Positions 18,401 through 64,000 are shown, counted from the first letter of the stretch. The stretch is 64,000 bases of DNA from Ginglymostoma cirratum (GCA_024137785.1 JAHRHZ010000018.1:32343307-32407306); one strand, 5' to 3'. Notes: a model not told the origin generated them from the sequence alone. Translations and numbers: made by a program.

Positions 18401-21400
18401 TTCCAATTGTGCTAAAATTTACACCAAAAACCAATTTCAGAATACCAAGCTGGTTTTCAATGTGCCTGACCTATAGTCGCTTGCTGGAAGCTATATACAT
18501 TCATATGCAGGGCCCAATCCAAAGAGAACATCGCCATGTATTATGCCTTTTTCAATTAAACAAAGCTTGGTAGGCACTCATTGGGAAATATTTCCCCATT
18601 GCCATGGCCTGACCAACCAAAGTTGACTTGCCTGATTTTGAATTTAAACAAAATCTTGAAGGTTAACTGTTCCCTGGTTCATCCTCCATGCCAACACCTT
18701 GACCAAACAGAGTCCATTTGCCAACTCAGTGTACACTTCCCGCTGCCTTGGGAAAACAGTCAAAATAATCAAAGAGCCCTCCCACCCCGGTTATACTCTC
18801 TTCCACACACTTCCATCGGGCAGCAGATACAAAACATGTACCAACAGATTTAAGAACAACCTCTATCCCACTGTTATCAGATTTATGAATGGACCTCTCA
18901 ATGTGTTAGAGTTGATCTTTGTCTGCATCTTCTCTGTAGTAGTAACATTGTATTCTGCATTCTGTTCTGTTACCCTGATGTACTTACATAAAGCATGACT
19001 TGCCTGGTTAGCATGCAAAACAACACTTTTCACTGTATCTTGGTACATGTGACAATAATAAATCAAATCAAAACAAATTAGCACCCTCTTCTCATTCAGT
19101 GTAAATTATTGTTCCCTTGAAAAGTAGTATTCATGTAGTTACAGAGTCAAGAACATAGAACAGTTCAGCACAGGAACAGGCCCTTTGGCCCTCCAAGCCT
19201 GCGCCAACACATTTTGCCCTTCCACACTAAAACTGTCTTCTCTTACAGGATCTGTATCCCTCTACTTCCTTCCTGTTCTTGTATTCATCCAGGTGCTTTT
19301 TGAATGTTGCTATTGTGTCTGCTTCTGCCACCTCCTCTGGCAGCGTGTTCCAGGCACTCGCCATCCTTTGTGTGAAAGACTTGCCTCACGCATCTCTTTT
19401 AAATGACCCCCACTCTGCACCTTGAACCTGTATCCCCTAGTAATTGATCCCTCCACCCTGGGAAGAAACCTCATAGTTTCCCCCTCCATCCATGTCATTC
19501 ACAATCTTATAAATTTCTATCAGGTCACCCCTTAACCTCCTGCATTCTAGTGAAAACAAACCCAGTCTAGCCAAGCCCCATACCAGGCAACATCCTAGTA
19601 ATTCTTCAAGGACCGCAACTTCCCCCCTACAGTGGTCGAGAACGCCCTCGACCGTGTCTCCCGCATTTCCCGGAACACATCCCTCACGCCCCGTCCCCGC
19701 AACAATAATCAAAAAAGAATCCCCCTCGTCCTCACATACCACCCCACCAACCTCCGGATCCAACGCATCATCCTCCGACACTTCCGCCATCTACAGTCAG
19801 ACCCCACCACCAAAGACATCTTTCCCTCCCCACCCTTATCTGCCTTCCGGAGGGACCACTCCCTCCGCGACTCCCTTGTCCGCGCCACACTCCCCTCCAG
19901 CCCCACCACACCCGGCACTTTTCCTTGTAACCGCAGGAAGTGCTACACCTGCCCCCACACCTCCTCCCTCACCCCAATCCCAGGCCCCAAGAAGACATTC
20001 CACATCAGGCAGAGGTTCACCTGCACATCTGCCAATGTGGTATACTGCATCCGCTGTACCCNNNNNNNNNNNNNNNNNNNNNNNNNNNNNNNNNNNNNNN
20101 NNNNNNNNNNNNNNNNNNNNNNNNNNNNNNNNNNNNNNNNNNNNNNNNNNNNNNNNNNNNNNNNNNNNNNNNNNNNNNNNNNNNNNNNNNNNNNNNNNNN
20201 NNNNNNNNNNNNNNNNNNNNNNNNNNNNNNNNNNNNNNNNNNNNNNNNNNNNNNNNNNNNNNNNNNNNNNNNNNNNNNNNNNNNNNNNNNNNNNNNNNNN
20301 NNNNNNNNNNNNNNNNNNNNNNNNNNNNNNNNNNNNNNNNNNNNNNNNNNNNNNNNNNNNNNNNNNNNNNNNNNNNNNNNNNNNNNNNNNNNNNNNNNNN
20401 NNNNNNNNNNNNNNNNNNNNNNNNNNNNNNNNNNNNNNNNNNNNNNNNNNNNNNNNNNNNNAGCCGAACTCGTCCTCACCCTCAACAACTTTTCTTTCAA
20501 TTCCTCCCACTTCCTACAGACAAAGGGGGTGGCCATGGGTACCCGCATGGGCCCAAGCTATGCCTGCCTCTTTGTAGGTTATGTGGAACAATCCCTCTTC
20601 CGTACCTACACTGGCCCTAAACCCCACCTCTTCCTCCGTTACATTGATGACTGCATCGGCGCCGCCTCGTGCTCCCACGAGGAGCTCGAACAGTTCATCC
20701 ACTTCACCAACACCTTCCACCCCAACCTGAAGTTCACCTGGACCATCTCCAACACTTCTCTCTCCTTCCTGGACCTCTCTGTCTCCATCTCGGGCAACCA
20801 CCTAGAGACAGATGTCCATTTCAAGCCCACTGACTCCCACAGCTACCTGGAATACACCTCCTCCCACCCACCCTCCTGCAAAAATGCCATCCCCTATTCC
20901 CAATTCCTTCGCCTCCGCCGCATCTGTTCCCAGGATGAGACTTTCCAATCCCGCACATCTCAAATGTCCTCATTCTTCAAGGACCGCAACTTCCCCCCTA
21001 CAGTGGTCGAGAACGCCCTCGACCGTGTCTCCCGCATTTCCCGGAACACATCCCTCACGCCCCGTCCCCGCAACAATAATCAAAAAAGAATCCCCCTCGT
21101 CCTCACATACCACCCCACCAACCTCCGGATCCAACGCATCATCCTCCGACACTTCCGCCATCTACAGTCAGACCCCACCACCAAAGACATCTTTCCCTCC
21201 CCACCCTTATCTGCCTTCCGGAGGGACCACTCCCTCCGCGACTCCCTTGTCCGCGCCACACTCCCCTCCAGCCCCACCACACCCGGCACTTTTCCTTGTA
21301 ACCGCAGGAAGTGCTACACCTGCCCCCACACCTCCTCCCTCACCCCAATCCCAGGCCCCAAGAAGACATTCCACATCAGGCAGAGGTTCACCTGCACATC

Positions 21401-24400
21401 TGCCAATGTGGTATACTGCATCCGCTGTACCCGTTGTGGCTTCCTCTACATCGGGGAAACCAAGCGGAGGCTTGGGGACCGCTTTGCAGAACACCTGCGC
21501 TCAGTTCGCAACAAACAACTGCACCTCCCAGTCGCGAACCATTTCAACTCCCCCTCCCATTCCTCAGATGACATGTCCATCCTTGGCCTCCTNNNNNNNN
21601 NNNNNNNNNNNNNNNNNNNNNNNNNNNNNNNNNNNNNNNNNNNNNNNNNNNNNNNNNNNNNNNNNNNNNNNNNNNNNNNNNNNNNNNNNNNNTTGACCTG
21701 TCCGTCCTCCCTGGACTGACCTATCTCCTCCCTACCCCCCTACCTACACTCACCTTTACTGGCTCCATCCCCGCCTCTTCGACTTGTCTGCCTCCTCTCC
21801 ACCTATCCTCTCCTCTATCCATCCTCTATCCGCCTCCCCCTCTCTCCCTATTTATTTCAGAACCCTCTTCCCCTCCCCCATTTCTGATGAAGGGTTTAGG
21901 CCCGAAACGTCAAGTTTTCCTGCTCCTATGATGCTGCTTGACCTGCTGTGTTCATCCAGCCCCATGCTTGTTAACATCCTAGTAAACCTTTTTCTGTACC
22001 TTCTCAAAAGCATCCACATCCTTTTGGTAGCATGGCGACTAGAACTGTCTGCAATATTCCAAGTGTGGGCTAACTAAAGGTCTACAAAGCTGCAGAATAA
22101 CTGCCTATCCTTTTATACTCAATACCCCTTCCAGTGAAGGAAAGCATGCCATAAGCTTTTTTTACTACCTTATCTACCTGCTCTACCACCTTCAGCAACC
22201 CGTGGACCTGCATACCCAGATCCCTCTGCATATCAATATTCCTAAGGGTTCTGCCATTCACTGAATAATTTCCACCTGTACTTGACCTTTCAAAACACAT
22301 TACCTCGTTGAGGTTGATTGGCTCGCCGAGCTGGTTTGTTGTTCCGCAGACATTTCGTTACCGTGCTTGGTAACATCCTGAGTGCAGCCTCCGATGAAGC
22401 GTCGGTGTGTTTTCTCACCTGGTTTTTAGACTCTGGAATCCATTGAGCTGGATTGCTTCACTTCCAGTTTTCCTTCGTAGTGGAGTGCCAGGCTTCTAGG
22501 AATTCCCATGCCTGTCTCTGCTTAGCTTGTCCCAGGACTTTGGTGTTGTCCCAGTTGAATTGATGCTTCTCCTTATCCATGTGGATTGAGATGAGTGAAT
22601 ATTGGTTGTGTCTTTTTGTAGCCAGTTGGTGTTCGTGTACCGTTGTTGTCAATTTCCCTCCTGTTTGTCTGATGTAGTGTTTCTCACAGTCTCTGCAGGT
22701 GCTCTTATAGATGACATTGGTCCAGTCCATGGTGGGGGGGTGGGTCTTTAGTTCCGGTGAGCAGTTGTCGTAGGGTTGATGTGGGCTTGTGTGTCACTCT
22801 GATGCCCAGCAGTTGTAGGCGTCTTGTGGTGAGTTCCGATGAGTTCCTGATGTAGGGTGGTGTGATGAGTGTGTCGGGGCGTGTAGTATCTTCCTGATGT
22901 TGTTCATGTAGGCATCTTCTGACCCAGTTTTTTGGATATCCATTATCCTTTAAAACCTAGAAGAGGTATTCTTCTTCCTCTTGGCATAGTTCTGTGTTGC
23001 TGCAGTGTGTTGTTGCCTGTTTAAATAGTGTTCATATGCATTACCTCATATTTATAAAATTCATCTGTCATTTTTCTCCCCATGCCTCCAACTGACCTAT
23101 ATCCTGCTGTATCCTCTGACAATCCTCCTCACTATCTGCAACTTGGCCAATCTTTGTATCATTTGCAAACTTACTAATTAAACCAGCCATGTCTTCCTCC
23201 AAATCATTTATGTAGACCACGAACAGCAGAGATCCCAGCACTGATCCCTGTGGAACACCACTAGTCACAACCCTCCATTCTAAACAGTATCCTTCCACCA
23301 CTGCTTTCAGTCTCTTATGACTAAGCCAGTTCTGTATCCATCTTGCCGGCTCACCCCTGACACCGTGTAACTTCATCTTTTGTACCAGTCTGCCGTGAGG
23401 GACCTTGTCAAAGGCTTTACCGAACTCCATGTAGACAACATCAACCACTTCTCCCTTGTCAATCATCTTCGTCACCTCCTCAAAAAACTTAGAGTCACAG
23501 AGCACAGAAACAGACTCTTCGGTCTGCATCCACCATTTCCTTTGGCAGTTCATTCACATGTGAACCACCCTCTGTGGAAAAAATTGCCCCTCAGGTCCCT
23601 TTTAAGTCTTTTTCCTCTCACCTTAAAAAAAATTCCCCTGGTTTTGAACTCCCCCACCCTACAGAAAAGACCTTGGCTATTCACCTTATCCGTAACCCTC
23701 ATGATTTTTATAAACCTCTTTGAGGTCTCCCCTCAACGTCCTATGCTGCAATGAGAAAGGTCTTAGCCTATCCATAACTCAGGGAAAGGTAGGATGGATG
23801 GAGTGGGAATGACAGTTGGAGCAATAAGGCCAAACAAATTACCAAACGGCTATACAGAATAAATTTTAAAACAGCTTTCATGGATCATGTGTCACTGGTA
23901 ATATCCCTAATTGCTGTTAAACTGAAGGGCTTGCTAGGCCATATCAGAGGGTAGTGAGGAGTCATCCACATTGGTGTGGGTCTAATGTCATATATAGGTG
24001 TGATTGGTTAAGGACAGCAGATTTCCTTCCCTAAAGGATATTGGTGAACCAGGTGGATTTTTAGCCAGCAATGTCCAAATCCTGTTCTGTTCTGATGAGT
24101 GCAAGACAACAGGATTTGGCGGCATATCTCTTTTATCAGCAATAATACTATTTGCTTAATTTAAATTAAAGTGATACCCTGTGTTAGTATACTTTTATGT
24201 GGTACCAGGCATGCTTTATGAGCTTAATAGCAAAGAGAGTTAATGCAGAAACTAATTGTAGTATCCTTTCATCTCCCTGATTGGAAATGGCTAACACAGA
24301 TCATTGGTTAAACTTCTCTTTCTCTTACATATGGCTATGTACCAAAACAATGTCTTTCCAGTGAAATGTCTGATATCTCTTAACCTGTTTTCTTCTTCCA

Positions 24401-39400: not shown

Positions 39401-40744
39401 TTGAGACCCTAAAGTGAACTGGTGTTTCAAATTTCACAGGTCCAAAGAAAACATACATTGTCTGGCATTCCTGGGCTGTTGTGAAATTTTGATCCTGAAA
39501 CATTTGGTTTTTGAAAGGCCCTGAGTTCTCTGAGTCTTTGGGTGTGTCAGAACATTCTGTTCTGCCATTGAATTAAATTGTGACTAATCTGTATTCCTAT
39601 TTTGGTTCCATATCTGTTGATATTCTTATGTAACACGATCTATCATTCTTGGTCTTGAAAATTTCAGTTATCCTAGCATCCAGTCTTTTGGAGATAGTTT
39701 AAGATTCTAATGTGTGGGGAAAATAATTTCCTGATTTTTATCCTGAAATCTCTGTCTCTAAATTTAAGATTGAACTCTCAAGTTCAGGGTTTATGCATCT
39801 GAGGAAGTGGTTTATCTATGTTTAATTTTTTAGATTCCTTAATTGTTTAAATACTGTGATGCAGGATCTTTTGATCCTCCTGGCTTTCTCATTCTTTCAT
39901 TCATGTAAACTCTGACAGTGTACTTTCTTACTTTCTCAGTCCCATGGAATTGCGAATACAGCAACCGTTTTTGTAATGTATCGCAGAAACTGAATCAGCC
40001 TGTATCAGAATCTATATTGATTTGCTTTTGAAATTCAGAATATAATTATATTAGTTATTAATAACCAAAATATATATAGTATTGCAGCTAATAATACTTT
40101 GAAATTTGGCAACATTTTAAAGGCACGAGTTGGATTGTATTTTGCATTTTTTTTTTACTTTAGCCACTTTTGAACCCTGCCTGAAGCAACATGAATCATT
40201 ACTAAATGCTCATAAGAAGCTTCTGGAGAAGAATAATGAAAGATTTCGAGTTATTGAAGCTACTGGTTACAATGGTAAACTGATTTGGAAGATCAACAAT
40301 TACAGAGCAAGGAAGCAAGAAGCAGCAGAGGGACGTACTCCTTCTCTTTTCAGCCAGCCCTTTTACACTAGTCGCTGTGGATATAGGTTATGTGCTAGAG
40401 CATACTTGAACGGAGATGGCACAGGCAAAGGAACACACTTATCTTTGTTTTTCGTGGTTATGAAAGGTGATTATGACTCTCTCTTGGTGTGGCCATTCAA
40501 GCAAAAGGTCACCCTCTTACTGCTTGACCAGGGTCCAAAGAAAAACCATATTGTAGAACTCTTTAAGGCTGATGCCAGCAGCACTAGCTTTCAAAGACCA
40601 ATTTCTGAAATGAATATTGCATCTGGATGTCCAAAGTTTGTGTCTCACACTATACTTGAAAGTGGGAAAACTGCAACATTTATCAAAGATGATACATTAT
40701 TTATCAAAGTTGTTGTAGATTTATCTGATCTTGAAGATCTATAA
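6261..40744 (+). CDS. TRAF5: TNF receptor-associated factor 5, complete spliced CDS (10 coding exons, 1689 nt, 562 aa)
   Basis: Exons 6261-6490, 7409-7466, 10432-10533, 14813-14974, 15717-15794, 30611-30685, 30773-30865, 36866-37006, 38200-38368 and 40164-40744 join in frame with GT-AG borders. TRAF5-type motifs: FIRQDS, QFVEPLEDRYKC, NPYQTGCGHRFC, FYTSRCGYRLCARAYLNGDG and the C-terminus VDLSDLEDL. Confidence 0.96.
6815..7100 (+). mobile_element. tRNA-derived SINE, HE1/V-SINE type, full length
   Basis: A box tggctcagtgg, B box ggttcgattcc, core gtccaaagatgtgcagg..taggtggattggccatgctaaattgccc, CR1-like tail. Confidence 0.88.
7409..7466 (+). CDS. TRAF5: TRAF5 coding exon 2 (RING C-end)
   Basis: ttctag| then ETKPIAICPIDHEKIITNW |gtaaga, 58 nt; supplies the CPID end of the C3HC3D RING. 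Confidence 0.93.
9760..10222. mobile_element. decayed PLE-end element with internal sequence
   Basis: Arm sequence as at 31684; perfect 14-bp TSD aaatattggaaata at 9746-9759 and 10223-10236. Confidence 0.7.
10432..10533 (+). CDS. TRAF5: TRAF5 coding exon 3
   Basis: IFRDNCCKREVWNLMVYCKNSPAC...GRLG, aag| and |gtgagt, 102 nt. Confidence 0.94.
12950..13505 (-). mobile_element. decayed CR1/L2-clade LINE 3' end (related piece at about 2265-2455, +)
   Basis: caggagtgtgatggaatac motif shared with the 2305-2330 region. Confidence 0.6.
13714..13916 (+). mobile_element. internally deleted copy of the same SINE
   Basis: ggcggcatggtgactcagtggtt joined directly to cctcccacagtccaaag. Confidence 0.8.
14813..14974 (+). 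CDS. TRAF5: TRAF5 coding exon 4 (TRAF zinc fingers)
   Basis: DHLKKCEFETVACVNGC...RKDLMGHLQTVCEYREEACQYC, 162 nt, GT-AG. Confidence 0.94.
15043..15198. mobile_element. short hairpin element (third arm family)
   Basis: 31-bp arms 15080-15110 and 15169-15199; TSD acataattttgtg at 15030-15042 and 15199-15211; internal CTGATGA-AGGAG..CTCC motif. Confidence 0.75.
15717..15794 (+). CDS. TRAF5: TRAF5 coding exon 5
   Basis: EHEAVACPNYPIQCTYNCGESLLRSE, 78 nt, |gtgagc. Confidence 0.93.
16800..17260 (-). mobile_element. decayed Harbinger transposase fragment
   Basis: Minus strand of about 17152-17202 reads AGFPQVQGTIDCTHIAL. Confidence 0.75.
17272..18250 (+). mobile_element. CR1-type LINE 3' part
   Basis: SKFVDDTKIGGIVDSEE...QRDLDQLGQWAEEWQMEFN; CR1 tail ending tatgactgtatgac. 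Confidence 0.88.
18255..18580 (+). mobile_element. decayed PLE GIY-YIG C-terminal remnant
   Basis: DSTIGQHFPNNSNCAKIY...LLEAIYIHMQGP across frameshifts. Confidence 0.55.
18735..19075 (+). mobile_element. Rex1/Babar-like LINE 3' end
   Basis: IIKEPSHPGYTLFHTLPSGSRYK...TNRFKNNLYPTVIRFMN, ending aataaatcaaatcaa. Confidence 0.7.
19602..21972 (+). mobile_element. Penelope-like retroelement (RT + GIY-YIG endonuclease), partial tandem, 13-bp TSD
   Basis: RT motifs GVAMGTRMGPSYA, LRYIDD, FLDL; GIY-YIG VVYCIRC...LYIGET..RLGDRFAEH. TSD aacatcctagtaa at 19589-19601 and 21973-21985. Two N gaps inside. Confidence 0.92.
21884..21911 (+). ncRNA. minimal hammerhead ribozyme motif in PLE 3' end
   Basis: CTGATGA-A-GGG(tttagg)CCC-GAAA-CGTC: intact core boxes, stem II, and palindromic ACGT in place of stem III. 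Confidence 0.75.
22307..23038 (-). mobile_element. second, older Penelope-like element fragment (GIY-YIG end)
   Basis: NVIYKSTCRDCEKHYIRQTG...HEHQLA...FNWDNTKVL...FLEAWHS; flanked by cattacctc at 22298-22306 and 23039-23047. Confidence 0.82.
22349..22382 (-). ncRNA. degenerate hammerhead motif of the second PLE family
   Basis: Minus strand CTCAGGA-T-GTTACC(aagcac)GGTAAC-GAAA-TGTC; perfect 6-bp stem II, one core mismatch. Confidence 0.6.
23491..23775 (-). mobile_element. CR1 3' fragment
   Basis: Same tail sequence as the other CR1 copies. Confidence 0.7.
25146..25705 (-). mobile_element. CR1 3' fragment
   Basis: RLRGDLIEVY, FPRVGESKTKGHRFKVR...FKRHLD. Confidence 0.85.
26092..26317. mobile_element. 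hairpin element made of two inverted PLE termini
   Basis: 77-bp arms 26133-26209 and 26241-26317 (2 mismatches); TSD ttcataaa(t/c)atgttg at 26077-26091 and 26318-26332. Confidence 0.85.
26540..27560 (-). mobile_element. decayed Harbinger/PIF transposase (HARBI1-like)
   Basis: FPQVHCTRDC, GFHSINI, SGSCHDAY, GLLKLRF, CCIILARCALHN in the expected order, frameshifted. Confidence 0.8.
30611..30685 (+). CDS. TRAF5: TRAF5 coding exon 6
   Basis: FDIHLMECPEAEVECSYKKYGCQVR, 75 nt, tag| and |gtaagc. Confidence 0.93.
30773..30865 (+). CDS. TRAF5: TRAF5 coding exon 7
   Basis: EKRRMIREHEYSYLNEHLLLVVTINTKLEEQ, 93 nt, follows an 87-nt intron. Confidence 0.93.
31684..31904. mobile_element. hairpin element (second arm family)
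   Basis: Inverted arms; perfect 13-bp TSD attctctaagcag at 31671-31683 and 31905-31917. Confidence 0.82.
32500..36300. mobile_element. decayed Harbinger-like element (transposase remnant +, possible Myb/SANT remnant -)
   Basis: About 33420-33575 resembles LL.D.GYP..T.LMIPV.NP...EQTL.LLKQR; KFNDL on the minus strand near 35850; 32850-33120 resembles 11270-11540. Confidence 0.5.
36866..37006 (+). CDS. TRAF5: TRAF5 coding exon 8 (coiled coil)
   Basis: ILDLKNTLCERNQAITQLQEQISKLDIEMKQL...AKTQ, 141 nt, GT-AG, in frame. Confidence 0.9.
38200..38368 (+). CDS. TRAF5: TRAF5 coding exon 9 (coiled coil)
   Basis: KMLAGHTDKIINIEQQ...IASL, 169 nt, phase-1 donor gtccgt matching the phase of the last exon. 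Confidence 0.88.
38710..39311. mobile_element. hairpin element interrupted by a CR1 3' fragment (about 38788-39160, minus)
   Basis: Left arm, CR1 tail, right arm; flanks tta(a/g)gtagaat(a/g)tgct at 38694-38709 and 39312-39327. Confidence 0.65.
40164..40744 (+). CDS. TRAF5: TRAF5 last coding exon (TRAF-C/MATH domain)
   Basis: YNGKLIWKI...SQPFYTSRCGYRLCARAYLNGDG...WPFKQKVTLLLLDQ...MNIASGCPKF...KDDTLFIKVVVDLSDLEDL*. Confidence 0.97.
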
Positions 40745-45809: not shown

Positions 45810-46240
45810 CTGGGGACGGCGCGGGGCAGAGGGTGCAGGAGGAGAATATGTCTATTCCTGTTGCTGGGAGTTGTCAGACATTGAACCCAGTAGCTGCTCA
45901 CACACTGTACACCTTGTCCCCTCCACCGCGTCCCCCGGTGGGCTCAGGGTGAAGCGACAGGGACAGGCCCCCACCCCCCTGCTGCTGCAGCTCCCAGTCA
46001 GGGAGCAGCCCTGCAGTTAAAGACCCCCCCCCCGACCCTCCCCCCACAACCCAGTTGGAAGCGGTGAATTCCCAGCTGCCGAGCCATCAAGGTCACATTT
46101 GAAGTGGAATCAGTTCGAACGGACTGACTTCCCCCAACTGCAGTTTTAAATACAGTGAGCGGCCTCGACCAGCAGCCCACAAAACAAAACCCCAACGAGT
46201 GTCCCAGCGCTGCAGCCATGTGGAAACTCAAACGTAAGTT
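45810..46240 (+). promoter_or_regulatory. candidate promoter and non-coding first exon of the CK-like gene
   Basis: Locally GC/CpG-rich patch, TATA-like ttttaaata near 46144, then a strong donor AAC|gtaagt at 46233/46234. The coding exon at 52924 opens with an acceptor, so an upstream exon is required. Confidence 0.4.
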
Positions 46241-47930: not shown

Positions 47931-48259
47931 TCGTTGTTACTATGTTTTCTTTATGGTTTTGCTTTGATAAAGAGCTGATTATTTTGTTGACTTTGTGTTC
48001 TTAGGACATTTCTGCACATGTCACATCTTATCTATCTGTTGTTTCTCACAGCCCCACTGGAAATGCCACTCAGTCTCAAATACAAGCACATTTTAGAGGT
48101 TTGTATTCTGGAATAAAAAAAATTAAAATTCTATTATCGCATTGCAGACATGGAAGAAGTGTGCATCAGAAATGTACGTGTATTTGGCCACTAGCAATAA
48201 ACAATAGCCTTTTCTTTATTTATTTTTTTCCCTGTTAGGATGTTGGTGAGTATTTGTTG

Positions 48260-52530: not shown

Positions 52531-52929
52531 TGCAAATGAATTGTGTGCGAGAAAGCTTTCTTGTCATTGATGGGCTTTAAACACATTGTACTGTTATTAT
52601 CAAAACAAAATACAGGTTAAAAGTTCATCACAAACAATCATCCACTTTTGTTATAACCACATGCTGTTAAATATGTGCTGTCTGATATTCACTGTGTCAT
52701 ATTACATTCCTCATCTATTTATTTTTGATTGTTACCTCATAGTGTAGGTGATCTAAGTTGTTTGGATCTAATGATTTTACATCGCAATGTTGTACATATG
52801 AGCAGTCCAGTTATGTATAATGGCACACAGACTTAATTTCCACTTCATGTTTCTTATTTCATATTAAAAGAATTGTTATTTAATCCATCAAATTGACGCT
52901 GATTTGATTGTTTATAATTTTAGCAATTA

Positions 52930-53122
52930 ATGCCAACTGATCCCTCAATTTCACTTAATCTTAAAAAATTGTCGGCTGAAGAAGAATTTCCAAACTTGGC
53001 CAAAAATCAGACTTGTATGGCAAAAGTTCTTACAATTCAAATGTACAAGAGACTGAGGGCCAGAGCAACCCAAAGTGGCTTCACACTGGATGATATCATC
53101 CAACCTGGTGTTGATAAATCTG
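52930..53122 (+). CDS. CK-like coding exon 1
   Basis: Acceptor tag at 52921-52923, ATG 6 nt later; MPTDPS...[16 protein letters not shown] + G|gtaagt. Confidence 0.92.
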
Positions 53123-56100
53123 GTAAGTCTCCTTTTAATTTAAAAAAAAACTCCTTTAGTTTTCAGTTAAAAGCTAATAATGTCACATTTGATAGCAATG
53201 TAAATTGAAACATTTGTAAATGATACAATTACGATACTATATGCTGTATGAAATATGAACCATCCATCCTTCAATATCTAGGAGTATTTCAATTCTGCAA
53301 GTCTAGTTTGACATAGTCCTGGGGATTTGCTAAGGTGACATTTGATCACATGATATTTTAACCACTGCTTACAATTGTTCCATTTTCACTGGGTGAGTGT
53401 TTCACCGTCATCATCAAGCCCTGATCTGACCTTTTGTTTTACAGCAGGATAAATCATAAAATTTGTAAAGAAAGAAAATAAAAGAATAGAAAGATTTAAG
53501 GATGTGTAATGTTTAAATAAAAATGAGTTCTGTGATGTTTTTACATTATTGGCCTCAATGAGAAACACAAACATAAAACTATTGATTCAATCAAATTAAT
53601 TGAAAAAAGTGAATTCTAAGCAATATTTTCATAAATTTTACAACTTGAAACAATGAATCGCAAATTATAGAAATGATAAATAAACAGGAATTGAATTGAA
53701 TTCACTGACTCTCATTCCTCATCACAAAAGCACAATTTCAGGGAGCTAAAGCCCATCCTCAGGAAACATTGAAGTTGCTCAGCTTTCATCATAAAATGAA
53801 TTATACAACAATGCCACAGGCCACCTACAATCTCGTTCCCTTCCCTAGTTTGTGTTGATTTCCCCATTTTGGGTTGCCTCCCTCTTGCTTCCTAAGTTTA
53901 TATTTGCCCTCTGTCCTGAAAGATGAGTGTAAAGTGTTTCCACAGCTTTATGTGTCACTAATAGGTGCTGTAATGTAATGTAAATGTGGATTTAATGCAG
54001 TGATTCATCATAGGTGTCAGTCCTTTAAAGTTAAGTTGACCCTTTCATCGGCCAGCCTTGTGTATTTGTTTGTGTGCTTTTTCAATGGCTAAAGCACAAT
54101 AATACAATGAAAAATGAATCAAAATGTCCTGTTACCTTTTGCTGTCATTTTTGTACTGTGATTAAAATTACTACAGTGGATTTAAACTAAAATATCTGTC
54201 TTCCACACATGAAAAAGAATCTAGTTCCCCAACCCCGCACCGCCCGCTTCTATCTCCTCCCCAAAATCCACAAACCTGAATGCCCTGGTCGACCCATTGT
54301 CTCCGCCTGCTCCTGCCCCACCGAACTCATCTCCACCTACCTAGACTCCATTTTCACCCCCTTGGTCCAGGAACTCCCTACCTACGTCCGTGACACCACC
54401 CATGCCCTCCACCTCCTCCAGAACTTCCAATTCCCAGGTCCCCAACACCTCATTTTTACTATGGACGTCCAGTCCCTATATACCTGTATTCCCCATGCTG
54501 ATGGCCTAAAGGCCCTCCGCTTCTTCCTGTCCCGCAGAACGGACCAATCCCCCTCCACCGACACCCTCATCCGCCTAGCCGAACTCGTCCTCACCCTCAA
54601 CAACTTTTCTTTCAATTCCTCCCACTTCCTACANNNNNNNNNNNNNNNNNNNNNNNNNNNNNNNNNNNNNNNNNNNNNNNNNNNNNNNNNNNNNNNNNNN
54701 NNNNNNNNNNNNNNNNNNNNNNNNNNNNNNNNNNNNNNNNNNNNNNNNNNNNNNNNNNNNNNNNNNNNNNNNNNNNNNNNNNNNNNNNNNNNNNNNNNNN
54801 NNNNNNNNNNNNNNNNNNNNNNNNNNNNNNNNNNNNNNNNNNNNNNNNNNNNNNNNNNNNNNNNNNNNNNNNNNNNNNNNNNNNNNNNNNNNNNNNNNNN
54901 NNNNNNNNNNNNNNNNNNNNNNNNNNNNNNNNNNNNNNNNNNNNNNNNNNNNNNNNNNNNNNNNNNNNNNNNNNNNNNNNNNNNNNNNNNNNNNNNNNNN
55001 NNNNNNNNNNNNNNNNNNNNNNNNNNNNNNNNNGAAGGGTTTAGGCCCGAAACGTCAAGTTTTCCTGCTCCTATGATGCTGCTTGACCTGCTGTGTTCAT
55101 CCAGCCCCATGCTTGTTATCTCGGATTCTCCAGCATCTGCAGTACCTTTTATCTCATCTACTCCCCTAGATTGATTGACAAGCTATCTGATTTGAAATTA
55201 TCTGTTAGGTTGTCTGTTCTTGTCCTTCCCGGAGAGCAACCTGTTGTTTGTACATCAGTGGACATTATCAATGTTTGGCTGAGTTTCAAGTGCTAATGTT
55301 GTCAGCATAGTGGGTGTTCTGTTCATCTGAGAATGATTGACAGTTTCAAATTGTTGTATTTAAAGCTGTGAACATCTAAGCTCTGGTGTATAATAGGTTC
55401 AAGTGGAATGTACCTCATAATTCCAGTCTACGAATTAAAGTCATAAGTGACTTAAAAAGATGTTTAGGTCTGAATTGCTTAAGATTCAGTTGGTAATAAG
55501 ATAAGCAGCCCCTTCTTTGTGGACATGTAGATTTTGTTATTTTTGCAGTCCTTGACTTTTTCTGTTCCTGAATAAATGTCTACTTATACATATGATTATA
55601 CTGTTACATTATATAAGTTGCATGTCCTAATGACTGTCAGGGAAAAAGCAGCAGTGAGTGGGTGAACTGATATGACATAGCCCAAATGATTAGATAGCTC
55701 TTCACCCTGCCATTGGAATGTCATTTCTGAGTGTTGTGCAGTGAAGCCTCTCATGATAGCCAGCAGGTTGTGAGACACATCCTTTTTGAATGTTAAATCA
55801 TCAGCAATCCTTCAATATTTCAGAGTGCCTGTAGATTGAAACATTACCTGAAATGCTTGAGTATCTTGTTGACAGCATTAAAACATTGCCCTCTGCAGAT
55901 TTGTACAGTTTTTCTCAATACACCGCTGAGCAATGATCGAGAATGGACATGTGAATTTCCCTTGTAAATGTCCCAGCATTAGCAGGCAATGTGCTCCCTT
56001 GAAAAGCTGATAGACAGAAAGAACCTTTCACTCCAGAGCTGTGTGGAATTATCACTAATTCACACTGTCAATACAAGATGGGTTTAAGCGTGAGACATGT

Positions 56101-59100
56101 ATGGTGGCCAGGCCCCAGCACAATCTCTACACATTGGGTTTCAGCTCAGTGCTATGGTGTTTGGTTAGCTCAGTTAGCTGGACAGCTGGTTTGCAATGCA
56201 GATAACAGCAGAGTTAAATTTTCCTACACTGGGGGCCGAGGGTACCATGAAGGATTCTTCTTCTCAACCTCTCCCCACACCTGAGGTGTGGTTTGTCTTA
56301 GGTTAAACCACCACCAGTTGTCTCTCTGTAATGACAGAACAGTTCTATGGTCTGGCACAGCTAAGGCAACTTTACCTTTACCTGTCCACAATAAAGTGCA
56401 AGACCTTGGTTGCAATCATCAACATGGCAGCTCAAGGATTTGTGAAGCCTTGAGGCTACTTGTGGTAAAGGAGTTAGTTGCCTGTGAGAGACGAGCAATA
56501 CTTGGTCATTACAACTTCATGAATCCCTAGAATATCTGAAAAGCTGCTCATCTCTCACATGCGTGTGATTTCATTCGGCCTGACAGAGAAAATGATACTA
56601 AAGTTTAAGAATGCAAGTAAGGATATGAGGATATTTTTACAAAAGTGCAAGACTATATACAATTATGTGTCACCAATGTGCCCTCAGAATATTATTTTAT
56701 CCTCTCCATCCCACTATGTCTAAGTTCAGTCCTGGATTCCATAGCCAGGGTTGGAGGGATCCTACTCTATTGTTGACCATATTGGCAGATCATCCCTGGG
56801 GAGTGCTTGGGACCAATTCTGCTGAGAGAGCCCTGTCTTGATGCAGGTTCACTCTTCTCAGCTTGAACCTTTGCAAGCTTTGGCATCACAGTCAATGGAG
56901 TTAGTGGTAAGGGCAGTAGGGAGTGTAATGGGAATCTGGGCTCCTCTGCAAGTCCTGAGAAGCAGCTTCTGGGTAGCCTGTGTGTGGTTCCTCCTCTGTC
57001 TGGGTGCCTGCTAGTGCACCTTATCCCCCTGAGAGAAAGGGGCACCTGGAATGAGGTTGAGGTCCCTCATCCTACCTTACCTTACAGCACTTATGGCTGT
57101 GTAGGACTGTGCACACATCTGATAGAAACTATGTACTGGAACTATCATTCCAGGTAATGGCCAAAGTCTCCATGGAGACAGTTACGTGCATGCAAGCCAG
57201 AGCTAGCATGGCACTGATAATGTTATGGACTCCTCCATTCTTTAATCCAGTTCACTAACTGCATCAGACAAACCTGCCTGTTGTTCCTATGCCTGTTTGA
57301 GCGTTTGACAGCGATTAATAGCCGACATCATGGGATCCTCTTCTGCGTGGGGCTGAGCAGATGCCTGGTCTCCAGGAGCCCTGCAAGTGGCAGAGACCCG
57401 GGGAGTCCCTTCCTTGACCAGCTGCAGAGACATGTCAGTGACATGCTGCCGAGTCTAATCTATGTTAGAGCCCACCAAGCCAAATGTTTCTGAGCCCTGG
57501 AGATACGAGTGAAAGCCTTGCCAATGCATCCTGTGATGGTTCAGTGGTTTCCTCCTGAGAGATGGAAGAGGGGCTGAGGGCTGCCTGTGCTGGATTTGTC
57601 AGGATGGAAGTTTGCTGGGTGTTGCTGGTGCCTGCGTAAGGGAGAGAATTAGTTGTGCAAGAAGGATAAAAGTTTGTACAGATTCAGAATGGGTTAGTGT
57701 GGTGGTGCTAGCACAGCACCATGAAGCTCATGGGCTGCTTGTCCATGGAATTGTCCATGGCAGTCACGTGCTGTCCGACTGAATTGAAAGGATTGAGGAA
57801 ACTGATATCCATCAGTAACCCCAGGCCAGACTTGGCCCAGTTCTAAGCCAATCTGTACAGCAATGAGACAAAAGGAGCCCTTTGTGAGATGTATGTGCAG
57901 TTTCCGAGTTAGTGACTGATGGCCCTGTGAGTGTGAGGTAGCAGAGAGAGGAGGGTGGCACTTAACCTTCCAGAGTACAGAAGATCATCTATTTTCTTCC
58001 TGCACTGCTGTGCTTTCCATTTAACTTGGGACACTGTGCTGACCGGGGCCATTTCCTGTGTCCAGACTGACTGTGTCTGGTGGCGTGGTTTCCTTTGGTG
58101 TTCTACAGTGTAAACGATGGTCCTCCTCTCCACCAACCAGCCCACCGGCACTTCCAGCTCCCCTTCCCAAAGTGGGAAGCTAACACACTTTTGTGGGCCA
58201 CTTCCTCAGAGATAATGATGCAGGGCCACAGGATGTGGCTCAGTTCCTGACTTGCAGAATCCAAAAAATCAAAAGGGCTTTAAATATGGCGCCCTTAGTG
58301 TGTACTCTGGAAGGTGCTGGCAGTGGAACACTTAAGCCTCTTTTGCCATGTGATTTGACAGGAAGGCTGTCAGATAGCCCAGTGACCAGCTAATAAGATG
58401 AAGAGCAGAAGATTGCATGAAAAGATTTGCTCTGAGCAATGAAGCGAATTAATCAGGCACCACAAATCTCACTTGATAGAGCTTTTTAACTGAAAATGAG
58501 AAAATTTAGCCAATGTTACTCATTTATAGCATTGTTATGGAACCACAGATTTAATTGGCACCATTTTATTTGTTTGCTTGCCCATATAGAACATTCTTCC
58601 ATTAGAACTGTGGGTTGTGTGGCTGGAGATGCAGAATCATACACTGTATTCATGGAGTTCTTTGATCCTCTTATTGAACTGTATCATCATGATTATCAGC
58701 CAAACAGAATGCACAGGAGCAACCTGAATCCAGAAAACCTAAAGGTAGCTTTATAAAGTTCATTTTGTAATTTCTACATGTTACATTTGGAAGGAATAAT
58801 ATGTAGAACAAGATAAGACCATTTCAGCCTGTTCCAGAGACAGTTTCACAAAGTTCCTTATTAATGTTTCCAGTTTACCTTTCAGTCATGGGTGCAGCCA
58901 CTCACAAAAGCAATAAAGCAAAGCTCACCAATTCCTATCAACACATGTCTTTATGATTCAACTTTCACCAATATTGTCTACAGATCGTGTGCTCCCTGGC
59001 ACAGCCAACCTCACTATACCACTATATACCTTCCACTCCCACCACACACTGCCAGTCTTGAGTGGTAGAAAGACCATTGTCTCCCTGATGTACTTAAACA

Positions 59101-61468
59101 TCCTAGGCTATCGTTTTCCCTATGGTTTTTAATCCATTACAGATCAGACAGTTTTTTTTAATGAAAAAAATGATAAGTCCTGATGAAGGATGTAGGCCCG
59201 AAATGTCGACACTCCTGCTCCTCTCATGCTGCCTGGTCTGCCGTGTTCCTTCAGCTCCACACTGTTTTGACTTTACCAGCAGTCTACTCCACATATTTCG
59301 AGCCTGTGTTGAAATAAAAATTCTGATGTCAAGCCTTACAAAATCATGAAATAAACCAGGAAAAGACAGGCTGCTCCACCACCCCACTGTACATTGGTGC
59401 AAAGTTTTCATTTTCAAATCTCTACATAACTTTGCATTCTTCCTGTAGGCATACTTTATCCTCCCACCTCTGTTCTTGCAGCTCTGATCAACTTCATGTT
59501 TCCCTCTTCCACCCATTCCACTATTGATGGAAAACCCTTCAACTATCATGCTCCAACAGTTCAAAATTTCCTTCCTAAACCATTCATTGTCTCTTCTCTT
59601 CTTCAAAAACTTCCTTAAAAATACCAGCGGCTCTGTCAACTTCCCTTGTTCACCTCCTACTTCTGAATCCCAGTTGTGAAGTGGCCTGAGACACATTAAA
59701 TGTTTAGATTTACTGTAGCAGACATAAGACTTCATCTTTGTTCTACTAAAAAAAATTCAATTTAAGTTTCTAGTGACATTTTCAAAAACTATTCATTAAC
59801 CATTCGAATTCTCTTTTTTCAAGTTAATAATACATTATTTCTTACCTAATCCTTTCTCTATGTTAATCTGTTTTCAAACTTTAGCACCTGTCAATTCTAT
59901 TTAGAGAATGTTTTACCACTTGACTTATAAGGATAGACAATGTTATTTTTAGTCTTTTAATATTGATTTCAAATGGGAGTACAGAAGTTCCATTTTACTC
60001 ACGGTATTGTGGCACTGCATGTACAATTTGACGTGCAGTACATGTCTAGAGTCAGTCAGACCCACCAGAGCTGATTTACTTCCAACACTATATGCTGTTC
60101 TCTTTTTCATAATGTCAAAAGCTTCTGCTCCCATTTAAAAGGTTAGAAAATTAAATTTTTATTTCACAGAAAGTCCAGTTTCTAACTTTGCTTCTCATGC
60201 TGCAATCAGTACATAGGGGAAGAAGTGCCCAAATTCCTTCTGGGGGTATCCAATTGCTTCTCTAAATGGCTATCATATGCCTTGCATTAATGCAAGCCAA
60301 AATAGTATCTAGTCAAAGTAAAATTTGTACTGTTATAATCGCAGCTGATGTTATTACTGGACAGTAATAATAATACTGGTCAGATTCCAGACTGAAACCT
60401 GGCATAGTAGATGATGTTTTGTTTTCTTTTGATTTTAACGAAGTGATCTCTTGCTGAAACATTAGCACACGATGCTGCAGATTTTAAAAACAAAACAGAA
60501 GTTTATTAAGGAAAGAAATAAAGATAAAATAGAATAAACAAACCGTCTCTATTTGAATATTTTTAAATAGACTGTAAAAGTACAATCTAACGAATCCCAA
60601 AACATACATTCATAAATTGAAAAGACAAACAACTGCTTTTGTAAAGCATCCAAAACACACTCCCGGTAGAGTACCCAAAAACACTCCTTGTATAGAACCC
60701 CAAAACACAACTTATACCAGCTTTGAGTAATCTCTTCAGCATTTTATCCCAATTCTTTAGGTCAGGGAGTATCACTATCTTTTCCCAGATGCAATCTAGT
60801 TCAACTATATCTTTCTGTTCTCACAAGCACTGGCCTATAAAAGCATCTTCATCGACGGACTTCACAGGAAGTCAAAGTGAAACTAGAAAAGCATCTCTCT
60901 CTAAGTTTAAAAAGCCTTTCATGATATTCTAAACTGGAGCTTGTTTATCTTGTTCAGTTGTAAAATCCCACCAATGTGTATTAAAAAAATTAAATCTTAT
61001 AAATTATATAGGCCTCAAAAATTCTTCTGAAATAAATCGCAAAAGCTACAGAAAAAGTTTAGTTAGTTATGACCTCTAGACACACAGAGGGCCAACATGT
61101 TACTAATCAAAAACCCAAACTTCTAATAAATTATAATAAAATCACACAGTCAACATTACATTAACTAACCATGCAATAGGGCTGGTAATGCACAATGACA
61201 GGAGCTCCACAAATGTTGAATTGAGTCTACAGATTAAAATCCTTATATTTATGCTGCTAGTATCCATTAATTAATAACAATTGAATGGCTAGTTAATAAA
61301 AGGCCTGTAATTATCTATTACTCTTCTCCCTGCAGGGTGGAACTAATTTAGATGAACTCTATGTGTTGACCTGTCAAGTGAGCACAGGACGTAATGTGGA
61401 TGATTTTTGTTTCCCACCTCATTGCAGTCGTGGAGAGAGACGTGCACTGGAAAAACTTGCAATAGGAG
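52930..61468 (+). CDS. divergent creatine kinase-like (phosphagen kinase) gene, 5' part (residues 1-160); continues beyond the window
   Basis: Three exons of 193, 155 and 133 nt with phases 1/0/1, the CKB/CKM pattern. Motifs [62 protein letters not shown]. Confidence 0.93.
54221..55155 (+). mobile_element. 5'-truncated Penelope-like element, same young family as 19602-21972
   Basis: [16 protein letters not shown]...[13 protein letters not shown] motifs; 54577-54633 is identical to 20462-20518; same 3' terminus after the gap. Confidence 0.9.
56160..56380 (+). mobile_element. other tRNA-derived SINE, decayed
   Basis: ggttagctcagttagctggacagctgg A-box-like head; tail actttacctttacc. Confidence 0.5.
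57905..58190 (-). mobile_element. Myb/SANT-like ORF2 remnant of a Harbinger element
   Basis: RRTIVY...[18 protein letters not shown]....[11 protein letters not shown] trihelix-like pattern. Confidence 0.65.
58590..58744 (+). CDS. CK-like coding exon 2
   Basis: atag| (E)[51 protein letters not shown] |gtagct. Confidence 0.93.
61336..61468 (+). CDS. CK-like coding exon 3
   Basis: cctgcag| [44 protein letters not shown] + G|gtgatt. Confidence 0.93.
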
Positions 61469-61592
61469 GTGATTTGTTTTGTTTATTCATCACTGAAGAA
61501 ACTGGAAATAACAGAAAAGTTAACATCAAGCTCCAGCATTATCCATGTTTGAATCCTTCCAATCAGGTTTTCATTCCTGCCACTATACAAAC

Positions 61593-61885
61593 ATAGAAAA
61601 TAGGCACAGGAGTAGGCCATTCAGCACTTTGAGCCTGCACCACCATTTAATATGATCATGGCTGATCATGCAACTTCAGTATCACATTCCCGCTTTCTCT
61701 CTATATCCGTTGATCCCTTTAGCTACAAAGGCCATGTCCAGCTCCCTCTTAAATATATCTAACAAACAGGCCCCAACAGCTTCCTGTGGGAGGGAATTCA
61801 CAGGTTCACAACTCTCTGAGTGAAGAAATTCTTCCTCATCTCAGTCCTGAATGGCTTACCCTTTACTCTTAGGTGCTGTTCCCTA
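61593..61885 (-). mobile_element. CR1 3' fragment
   Basis: acatagaaaataggcacaggagtaggccattc tail; gaagaaattcttcctcatctc. Confidence 0.75.
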
Positions 61886-61964
61886 GTTTACATAGGTTAC
61901 ATGATATCAATGTTACAAATGGCTTCTCATGTTACTGTGACAAATCCTTTTTCATTTGCCTCAA

Positions 61965-62380
61965 TGTGTGCAGTCTTTGACGAGGTTGACCACACCATCC
62001 TCCTTTGAAACCTCCCTTTGTTGTCCAGTGCACGGGACTACTCCCCTTCTACCTCCACCTCCATAACATTCCCTTACGTTTGTCTCAGATCATCTGTTGC
62101 TGAAACCCTCATTTGAGCCTTTTTAAAAAAACTCTCTAGTGTGGAATATTCCAACACATTCCTGTTGGTCTGCCAAATTTCACCCTCCATAAACTCAAGA
62201 TCATCCAAAACTCTAGTGCTTGTGTCTCAACTCAATAGAGCTCCATTCTTCTATCACCACGAGGCCTACATTGACTCCTGGTAAAGCAGAATTTTAAAAT
62301 TCTCTTGCTCATTTTTAAATCTTGCTTTGATTTTTCACCTCCGTAATACCAATATCTCCATCATCCCCACAGCCCTCTAA
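61965..62380 (+). mobile_element. decayed L2-type LINE fragment
   Basis: AVFDEVDHTILL RT motif; later ctcaagatcatccaaaactct (IQN). Confidence 0.55.
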
Positions 62381-62384
62381 GGTA

Positions 62385-62905
62385 TAGAGTCATAGAGATA
62401 TACAGCATGGAAACAGACCCTTCGGTCCAACCAGTTCGTGCTGACCATAATCCCAAATTAAACTAGTCCCACTTGCCTGTGCTTGGCCCATATCCCTCCA
62501 AACATTTCTTATTCATGTACTTATCTAAATGTCTTTTAAACATTGTAACTGTACCTGCATCCACAACTTCCTCAGGAAGTTCATTTCACACACGAACCAC
62601 TGTCTGTGTAAAAGAAAAATTGCCCCTCATGTCTTTTTTAAATCTTTCTCCTCTCACCTTAAAAATATACTCTCTAGTTTTGAAATTCCCCACCCTAGGG
62701 AAAAGACACCTGCCATTCACCTTATCAACACATCTCATGATTTTATAAACCTCTATAAGGTCACCTCTCAACCTCCTATGCTCAGTGAAAGAAGTCCCAG
62801 CTATCCAACCTCTTCTTATAACTCAAACCCTCCATTCCCAGCAACATCCTGGTAAATCTCTTCTGAGCCCTCTCCAGCTTAATAATACCCTTCCTACAAT
62901 AGGGC
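62385..62905 (-). mobile_element. CR1 3' fragment
   Basis: RGDLIEVYKIMR..DKVN...LFPRVG. Confidence 0.85.
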
Positions 62906-64000
62906 TGATATCTCCACTGACATCTTCAGTATCAGAGTTTAATCATTCCACCATGAGTGACTGTGTCCTGGGCTCTGGAATTCCCTGTGTAAACCTCTGA
63001 TCTCTACTCACTTTCCTCATCCTTTGACCAAGCCTTTGATCACCCGAATGCATATTTCCTTATGTCATGTCCTGTTTTATTTCTTGAAGTTCCTATGGTG
63101 TGTTGGGATGTTTTATTATATTAAAGGTGTTGTATAAATGCCATAAATCACAGTGTATAGGGTGACCCCATTTACCTGGCTCACGAATAAGTTTTTTGCA
63201 AAATTTGACATTAATGTCAAACCACTTTTTCAGCCATGACATTACTTTACTCACGTTTGCAGTCAGCCTCAATTTTCCTCCCAGCAAAGATATGTTTTAT
63301 TTACTGGTACCTTATGACTGGGCACAAGGGATCAAGCAGGTGATATGAGCTCTTCATGCATGGAAGTTGAAAACACATTGACTTTTTGCATTGAATGCCA
63401 AGCAAATTTCAAAATAGCAACCACCCACTCTCACTTATATATTCAGTGCATAAGTCAACCACAGTTTTAGAGGGATTTTTCAATGGTTCAAATGTTACTC
63501 AGACACCAGCATCTACGGTATAATCTGTTGTTGTTTCTCTAAATCAGTGGGTGAATTGAATGTTACCACCATCTAATGGTAATCTAGTGGTAAAACACTA
63601 CAGCCGTTTTACATGTCATCAAACAGTACATGCAGTTATTGATGATCCATCAACAGTAGCATCTGAAAATAACTCACAGCTTTTATGCTATTTTTATCAG
63701 TTTCCATTCAAAGAATATTTAAGATGCTGATGAAACATTCACTCCCACTTCTTCATCCATTTGTCTATCTATGATCTCAATTAACCATACAGGCTTTAAA
63801 CTAACATAGACTACCGTACACAGAATTTGATCATTGCTCATTTAAAATAAAAATTGCCAACATTTTTGCATTGGAACTGAGGACTACTTCTACAAATAGA
63901 ACAAAATGTGGAGCCTCTGAACAAGATGATCTTCAGATAAAACCTCTTGTCTTTTGTTTACACCCTCTCTAAACTCATCAGCTATTGTTTTATAGAAAAT

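Follow-up and report, generated by a model that had tools for sequence, protein, structure and literature searches.

What does a creatine kinase (CK) gene encode once the codons for R130 and R132 have been replaced: an enzyme, the remnant of one, or a protein with another task? The question is raised by a CK-like gene in a window of 64,000 nucleotides from the nurse shark, Ginglymostoma cirratum (GCA_024137785.1 JAHRHZ010000018.1:32343307-32407306), where a first-pass annotation had noted CAA and AGC codons at the two sites. Translation of the exon at 61336-61468 (+) bears out both, with CAA at 61375-61377 encoding Q130 and AGC at 61381-61383 encoding S132. No other letter occurs at 61375-61383 in any of four public runs, so the codons are not a sequencing error. 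The loss is not due to chance either, since R130 and R132 are both present in 42 of 42 canonical CKs.

The same annotation had described three open exons with GT-AG borders (52930-53122, 58590-58744 and 61336-61468) that align with CKB without indels at about 55% identity. All three are open and real with the borders given, and 89 of the first 160 residues match a macaque CKB record in an ungapped comparison. An HMMER alignment of the orthologous RefSeq protein P0003 with human CKB is likewise gap-free over residues 24-404. The description was incomplete upstream, where two small coding exons had been missed. Coding exon 1 (46218-46233, +) begins with ATG, encodes MWKLK, ends at a GT donor and opens an N-terminal extension specific to the family; the N-terminus matches the RefSeq models P0003/P0004. 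Coding exon 2 (PPLEMPLSLKYKHILE; 48052-48098, +), with AG/GT borders, completes the extension and carries a motif conserved throughout the family. Coding exon 3 (52924-53122, +) covers CKB residues 1-65, with the CKB-equivalent Met at 52930 and a T59P change; counted from this Met, the numbering of the gene is that of CKB. Exon 4 (58590-58744, +) encodes residues 65-116 with R96Y at 58682-58684, and exon 5 adds S128T and S129C to R130Q and R132S. The first part of intron 5 (61469-64000, +) fills the remainder of the window, and the gene extends past its end.

A family search and the neighbouring DNA place the last four exons at C18:32410711-32415637 (+). Exon 6 (C18:32410711-32410882) has H191G and keeps ARDWPD, and exon 7 (C18:32411960-32412083) reads NKEDH in place of NEEDH owing to E231K, with E232 and R236 kept. 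Exon 8 (C18:32413054-32413243) keeps C283, S285, R292 and H296 and has N286D, Q318E and R320Q. Exon 9, with the stop codon (C18:32415441-32415637), has G324A and V325A. The nine coding exons form one open frame of 410 codons (410 aa) with GT-AG borders at all introns and neither stops nor frameshifts. Exon borders after residues 65, 116, 161, 218, 260 and 323 are of the cytosolic type, and the intron positions equal those of the same genome's own CKB. From the CKB-equivalent Met, the 387 residues are 98.7% identical to P0003, a whale shark protein labelled 'creatine kinase M-type-like'.

The annotation had called the gene maintained, and this stood up: no stops or frameshifts were found downstream, spliced contigs exist, and pN/pS is about 0.2. 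We compared 58300-61800 with contigs of four public runs. Exon 4 is spliced to exon 5, from 58744 to 61336 (GT-AG), in runs X9, X12 and X6; no exon 4-5 joint was seen in run X1. Exons 6-7 and 7-8 are joined in four runs from four studies. The exon 8-9 junction lies at the predicted place in two runs. In the other two the joint differs a little, consistent with a small indel in the 320s loop. A 1681-nt contig of run X9 spans exons 4-9 with 0 differences. Although the runs are not recorded as RNA, their spliced contigs imply that the CK-like gene is transcribed; the contigs speak to splicing, and neither to level nor to tissue. Against run X6, from a related organism, about 62 differences were counted, the last piece including 3' untranslated sequence. 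The 42 coding ones listed comprise 24 synonymous and 18 non-synonymous changes on 206 and 760 sites, respectively (pN/pS ~0.20, uncorrected; p 5e-7). Run X12 offers a small and weaker comparison, with three synonymous and five non-synonymous changes among the eight listed.

These results bear on the possibility that the gene is a plain pseudogene in decay or an artefact of assembly. The divergence of the family could be taken that way, since it changes more quickly than CKB (68.5% identity between shark and chimaera, against 88.2% for CKB), but the frames are still open. Against decay also stand the 410 intact codons, the splicing in four studies, the low pN/pS and open orthologues in more than 100 proteins from both major fish branches; by contrast, both a frameshift and a stop are present in a genuine CK pseudogene of this genome. 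The explanation is refuted as far as sequence can refute it, and we regard it as exceedingly improbable.

To delimit the family, we surveyed protein records. A search with exon 3 returned 12 proteins, of which the 11 named ones are of shark, ray or chimaera origin. A sturgeon-type protein, found by an alignment search, shares its cluster with RefSeq records named zgc:172076, and a search with the paddlefish protein returned many ray-finned orthologues among the matches listed (120 of 615). Of 140 rows sorted as family, 36 isoforms, partial or near-identical rows were removed. The remaining 104 (15 cartilaginous, the window's included, and 89 ray-finned) are related by descent and not independent; 42 canonical CKs served as control. 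In quick trees the CK-like proteins form one branch with the zgc:172076 proteins (16 of 16 rows, SH-aLRT 100; 6 of 6 rows in a second tree, SH-aLRT 100) on a long stem of 0.56-0.64 changes per site. Sharks, rays, chimaera and ray-finned fish thus share a single clade of these proteins, in which the window gene is the shark orthologue of zebrafish zgc:172076. The window protein is 54% identical to the paddlefish and 44% to the zebrafish orthologue. There are 20 family-specific fixed changes, among them T59P (101/104) and S129C (104/104). Five further proteins (P0276, P0286, P0288, P0320, P0325), all from fish or clustering with fish, have clearly higher scores with the family profile. Among the matches listed (120 of 1311; 120 of 615), none was named from a tetrapod, coelacanth or lungfish. 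The same holds for the 10 of 150 representatives checked by name, where 50% clusters hide members.

How much of the active site is left? The window protein has R96Y, S128T, R130Q, R132S, H191G, E231K, N286D, Q318E, R320Q and V325A, and keeps H66, I69, E232, R236, C283, S285, R292, H296 and D326. In the creatine pocket and loop latch (R96, H66, I69, V325, D326), R96Y and V325A are therefore set beside an intact H66, I69 and D326. We take R130, R132, R236, R292 and R320 to be the set of arginines that binds the ATP phosphates. The first four are confirmed in passages of PMC8626780 and PMC10557616. The window protein keeps two of the five and no family member more than three (one to three in cartilaginous fish, zero to two in ray-finned fish), against five of five in all 42 canonical CKs; 18 of the 89 ray-finned members lack the entire set. 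In the zebra shark, the RefSeq orthologue (P0134, P0136) also has R292C, leaving one of the five.

Across the family, R96 (0/104), E231 (0/104) and R320 (0/103) are never kept, and H191 (1/100) and N286 (2/104) are nearly lost. That the loss of R130 and R132 is shared by orthologues holds in so far as none of the 104 members keeps both. Either survives singly in some lineages, R130 in four members (4/104), all among the 15 cartilaginous ones, and R132 in 12 (12/104), all among the 89 ray-finned ones. Glu mostly occupies position 130 in ray-finned orthologues (101 of 105 rows). Retention is intermediate elsewhere: H66 11/104, I69 4/103, C283 15/104, H296 46/104, R236 62/104, R292 68/104 and E232 88/104. 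R132C, R236Q and C283S occur naturally within the family. Over 12 pocket positions the net charge, +4 in CKB/CKM, drops to a value between +1 and -2. Parsimony suggests that R96, H191, E231, N286 and R320 were already missing from the common ancestor, and R130 and R132 would have been lost later, separately. Because R96, E231 and R320 are absent from both branches, we envisage that phosphotransfer was lost early in jawed vertebrates, with further separate losses later.

Single changes in known CKs give a measure of what such losses may cost. In the passages of PMC8626780 consulted, human CKM R132C has 0.9% of kcat/Km and R130H under 4%, and both mutants show <5% ATP formation. Human CKB variants described in part of PMC10557616 retain kcat/Km of 2.1% (R132H), 12.3% (R236Q), 10.1% (C283S), 11.8% (R292Q) and 17.6% (R96P). 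For uMtCK, excerpts of bioRxiv 10.1101/2024.06.18.598884 report that Glu226 and Glu227 matter for catalysis, that E226A lowers activity and that His186/His291 contact adenine. Glu226, Glu227, His186 and His291 presumably correspond to CKB 231, 232, 191 and 296. With six or more crippling changes combined in the window protein, inactivity is predicted. The database labels imply otherwise, namely a weak but real creatine kinase. P0003 does contain PF02807 and PF00217, the N- and C-terminal ATP:guanido phosphotransferase domains (88.8 and 190 bits), its label is 'creatine kinase M-type-like', and human single mutants retain 1-18% activity in the passages of PMC8626780 and PMC10557616. Here, though, one protein combines the loss of six or more residues for binding or catalysis (R96, R130, R132, H191, E231 and R320, plus N286), and the same genome has CKB (C283), CKM (C1) and mitochondrial CK (C80) with canonical-looking motifs. 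We hold a weak but real creatine kinase to be very unlikely, although, given the single mutants, some residual activity is conceivable on sequence grounds. The pocket changes may have a further consequence: D32 of the degradation receptor ASB9 sits in the R132/N286/R292/R341 pocket (PMC7280518, in the part consulted), and one may speculate that the family, with part of this pocket gone, escapes the ASB9 degradation route.

The loss is uneven downstream of exon 5. E231 and R320 are gone (E231K, R320Q); E232, R236, C283 and R292 are kept in the nurse-shark gene. Because these four are kept in the shark protein, a residual ligand site is possible. The protein might then be a non-catalytic metabolite sensor that binds creatine, phosphocreatine or nucleotide via E232, C283, R236, R292 and K231 and changes its shape or partners. 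All 15 cartilaginous members keep E232, R236, C283 and S285 and have Lys at 231, a pattern that may point to a ligand site, preserved or built anew, and not to structure alone. R292 is kept in 14 of 15, while R130 and R320 vary, and N230, D233, H234, P284 and G288-G290 are retained throughout the family. The ray-finned members fit poorly: C283 and S285 are each kept in 0 of 89, with C283S in 89 of 89, and Glu is mostly found at 130. The CPSN motif, CPSD in the window gene, thus keeps its cysteine in cartilaginous fish only. With the reduced pocket charge and R96, H191 and the 320s loop gone, a sensor could fit sharks only, and we consider it unlikely. Another idea is that the CK fold here serves a different reaction or substrate, as a new enzyme. 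The long stem (0.56-0.64) followed by conservation, with the 20 fixed changes, is what such a shift might leave behind. It is hard to reconcile with a pocket that differs between the branches and varies freely in ray-finned fish (R320, H296, D335, E231), or with the 18 ray-finned members that lack all five arginines, and a new enzyme seems to us quite doubtful.

What the family keeps lies elsewhere. Canonical CKs have 239 invariant positions. At 78 of them, D54, H145-R151 and R209-D213 among others, the residue is retained by 90% or more of the members in each branch; another 60, with most of the pocket residues, have been lost on both sides. A full CK fold is predicted by an AlphaFold2 model of P0003 (pLDDT 82.5, pTM 0.83, TM 0.84 to human CKB; loops 87-91 and 346-352 uncertain). 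We take R148, R151 and R209-W211 to be part of the CK dimer face, on a list drawn up after the kept residues were seen. All five are kept in 104 of 104 members. Of the 10 residues assigned to the dimer face, nine are retained by 90% or more of the members, compared with 0 of 18 in the active site, a contrast for which the Fisher p is optimistic given the post hoc list. This conservation is suggestive of a retained dimer; W211 points into the core according to a passage of PMC8626780, and the residues may instead be kept for folding.

The N-terminal extension is the other conserved feature. Its 23 residues, mostly from the two extra exons, are absent from CKB and CKM. A motif, MWK-x-K-PP...Y...LE...PxDP, is common to the window protein and the zgc:172076 group, and in 51 aligned members W2, P7, Y16, L20 and E21, then P25, D27 and P28, are near-invariant. 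Among rows having the region, P7 and Y16 are retained in 49 of 49, W2 in 46 of 47, and P25 and P28 in 48 of 49. Searches of the ESM Atlas with residues 1-40 gave only scores under 0.9 and no lead for the motif; with the whole protein they gave creatine kinase clusters only.

The marks of a pseudoenzyme, a fold that is kept, catalytic residues that are gone and selection, are found together in the CK-like gene, judging from sequence and the predicted model. The protein is predicted to be catalytically dead and would be a scaffold or regulator, much as the annotation had inferred. The reading that we favour, with some reserve, is a pseudo-creatine kinase, predicted to be inactive, which probably acts as a dimer-forming adaptor pairing with itself or with active CKB/CKM. 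Selection would maintain the fold and the dimer face, and the N-terminal motif would bind a target. At some place in the cell the protein could then tether or dampen an active CK subunit, or form a scaffold with the shape of a CK; a homodimer and a heterodimer are both compatible with the present data. Regulation by pairing is plausible because wild-type/mutant CKB heterodimers can be dominant negative (PMC10557616, in a passage citing earlier work). Fam20A, which accompanies Fam20C (PMC5413348), offers a parallel: there, too, the fold is kept, catalytic residues are lost and an active paralogue exists alongside. Fam20A has another fold and its pairing is shown, whereas pairing of the CK-like protein is a proposal. 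The engineered, inactive CKB C283S (PMC10557616, as excerpted) has the very change fixed in the 89 ray-finned members; it is a laboratory mutant and not a natural gene, and the shark protein keeps C283.

Where did the gene come from? Compared with CKB/CKM (EC 2.7.3.2), the window protein shares PF02807 and PF00217 and is colinear over 381 residues at 56-57% identity. The gene has the CKB intron positions, the predicted fold and, like CKB, a tail-to-tail MARK gene. It differs from CKB/CKM in the replacement of R96, R130, R132, H191, E231, N286, Q318, R320 and V325, in the 23 extra N-terminal residues and in its faster evolution. Upstream, the last exon of TRAF5 (MATH domain; 40121-40744, +) is an open frame whose best PDB match is TRAF5 (292 bits, against 257 for TRAF3), and it ends 5.5 kb before the start codon of the CK-like gene. 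Downstream, the last exon of MARK1 (C18:32434175-32434555, -) lies tail to tail with the gene, 19 kb away. On C283, the neighbours of CKB are a MARK paralogue (C283:46.50 Mb), 58 kb off and in tail-to-tail orientation, and TRAF3, 1.2 Mb off; another MARK paralogue is on C193. The MARK gene beside CKB is presumably MARK3, a name we give it after the human arrangement. Because TRAF5-gene-MARK1 mirrors CKB beside MARK3 and TRAF3, the two CK genes appear to be a whole-genome-duplication pair, and the CK-like gene is likely the sister (ohnologue) of CKB. Duplication of a CKB ancestor would have given the gene at the TRAF5-MARK1 locus. A quick tree places the family with CKB (SH-aLRT 93, long stem); grouping with CKM (p-AU 0.33) and placement outside both (p-AU 0.37) are not rejected. 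RD3 and ELM2, as synteny markers, had no match on C18 or C283 and were uninformative.

Two observations concern the surroundings of TRAF5. A two-part cation-efflux (SLC30-type) gene lies at C18:33036073-33049863, 0.6 Mb downstream; in human, SLC30A1 is near TRAF5. The human lncRNA LINC00467 is on the forward strand at chr1:211.38-211.44 Mb in the portion of the record consulted. It directly follows TRAF5 in human, the position of the CK-like gene in the shark. Neither LINC00467 nor creatine kinase is named in the main text and four supplementary files of PMC5577775, by term search. LINC00467 as a possible remnant of the CK-like gene is a lead.

Vertebrates are commonly credited with four CK genes, two of them cytosolic and two mitochondrial, all active. 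A more far-reaching reading, which we put forward tentatively, would add a fifth jawed-vertebrate CK gene, the duplicate next to MARK1, a pseudo-kinase since before the split of sharks and bony fish. It would be a dedicated anchoring and regulatory subunit that heterodimerises with CKB/CKM, its N-terminal motif placing or throttling phosphocreatine turnover at a particular site, kept in fishes and possibly lost towards land vertebrates. Its retention in sharks and ray-finned fish spans over 400 million years. If the reading is right, the protein would give the vertebrate phosphocreatine system its first natural subunit without catalytic function. A paralogue kept for so long without its active site would mean that selection acts on a task of the CK fold other than catalysis, and it would show how fish might anchor or regulate the local buffering of ATP. 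The gene is present in zebrafish and medaka, which makes knockout and biochemical tests direct.

The conserved pseudo-creatine kinase family is real and apparently undescribed, though an earlier mention is possible. Databases already list its members, either under zgc:172076 or with the name of a CK. No description of the gene was found in listings and abstract openings from open-access PMC and bioRxiv, where the colon of zgc:172076 limits a search by name. In the parts consulted, PMC6443941 and PMC5473427 do not mention a gene of this type and PMC6429109 adds nothing. Paddlefish XP_041109013.1, sterlet XP_033873051.1 and the zgc:172076 proteins belong to the same clade as the window gene and have the same N-terminal extension. 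The ray-finned zgc:172076 group is more degenerate than the shark gene, with C283S, S285A, mostly R130E, R341T and a shorter 320s loop, and its records bear a placeholder or 'creatine kinase' name only. Fish proteins labelled 'creatine kinase M-type', 'B-type' or 'testis isozyme' are probably often mislabelled, which affects the reading of fish transcriptomes.

Other degenerate phosphagen kinases were seen along the way. At C80:20471680-20481600, about 48 kb before an intact-looking copy, is a degenerate tandem copy of mitochondrial CK; its frame shifts near residue 151, its motif is altered to SSCARTGRS and an in-frame stop lies close to its end, so that it is an ordinary pseudogene. Five unnamed proteins (P0361, P0267, P0272, P0275, P0312) contain degenerate-looking phosphagen-kinase domains. 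P0361 is without the RVR and NEED motifs, and the long multi-domain ones score slightly higher with the family than with the canonical profile. Dead phosphagen-kinase domains may have more than one origin. Elsewhere in the window, long frames at 19602-21719 (-) and 54191-55174 (+), with masked stretches, are reverse-transcriptase-like, and the former also has a GIY-YIG-type end; they resemble Penelope-type retroelements.
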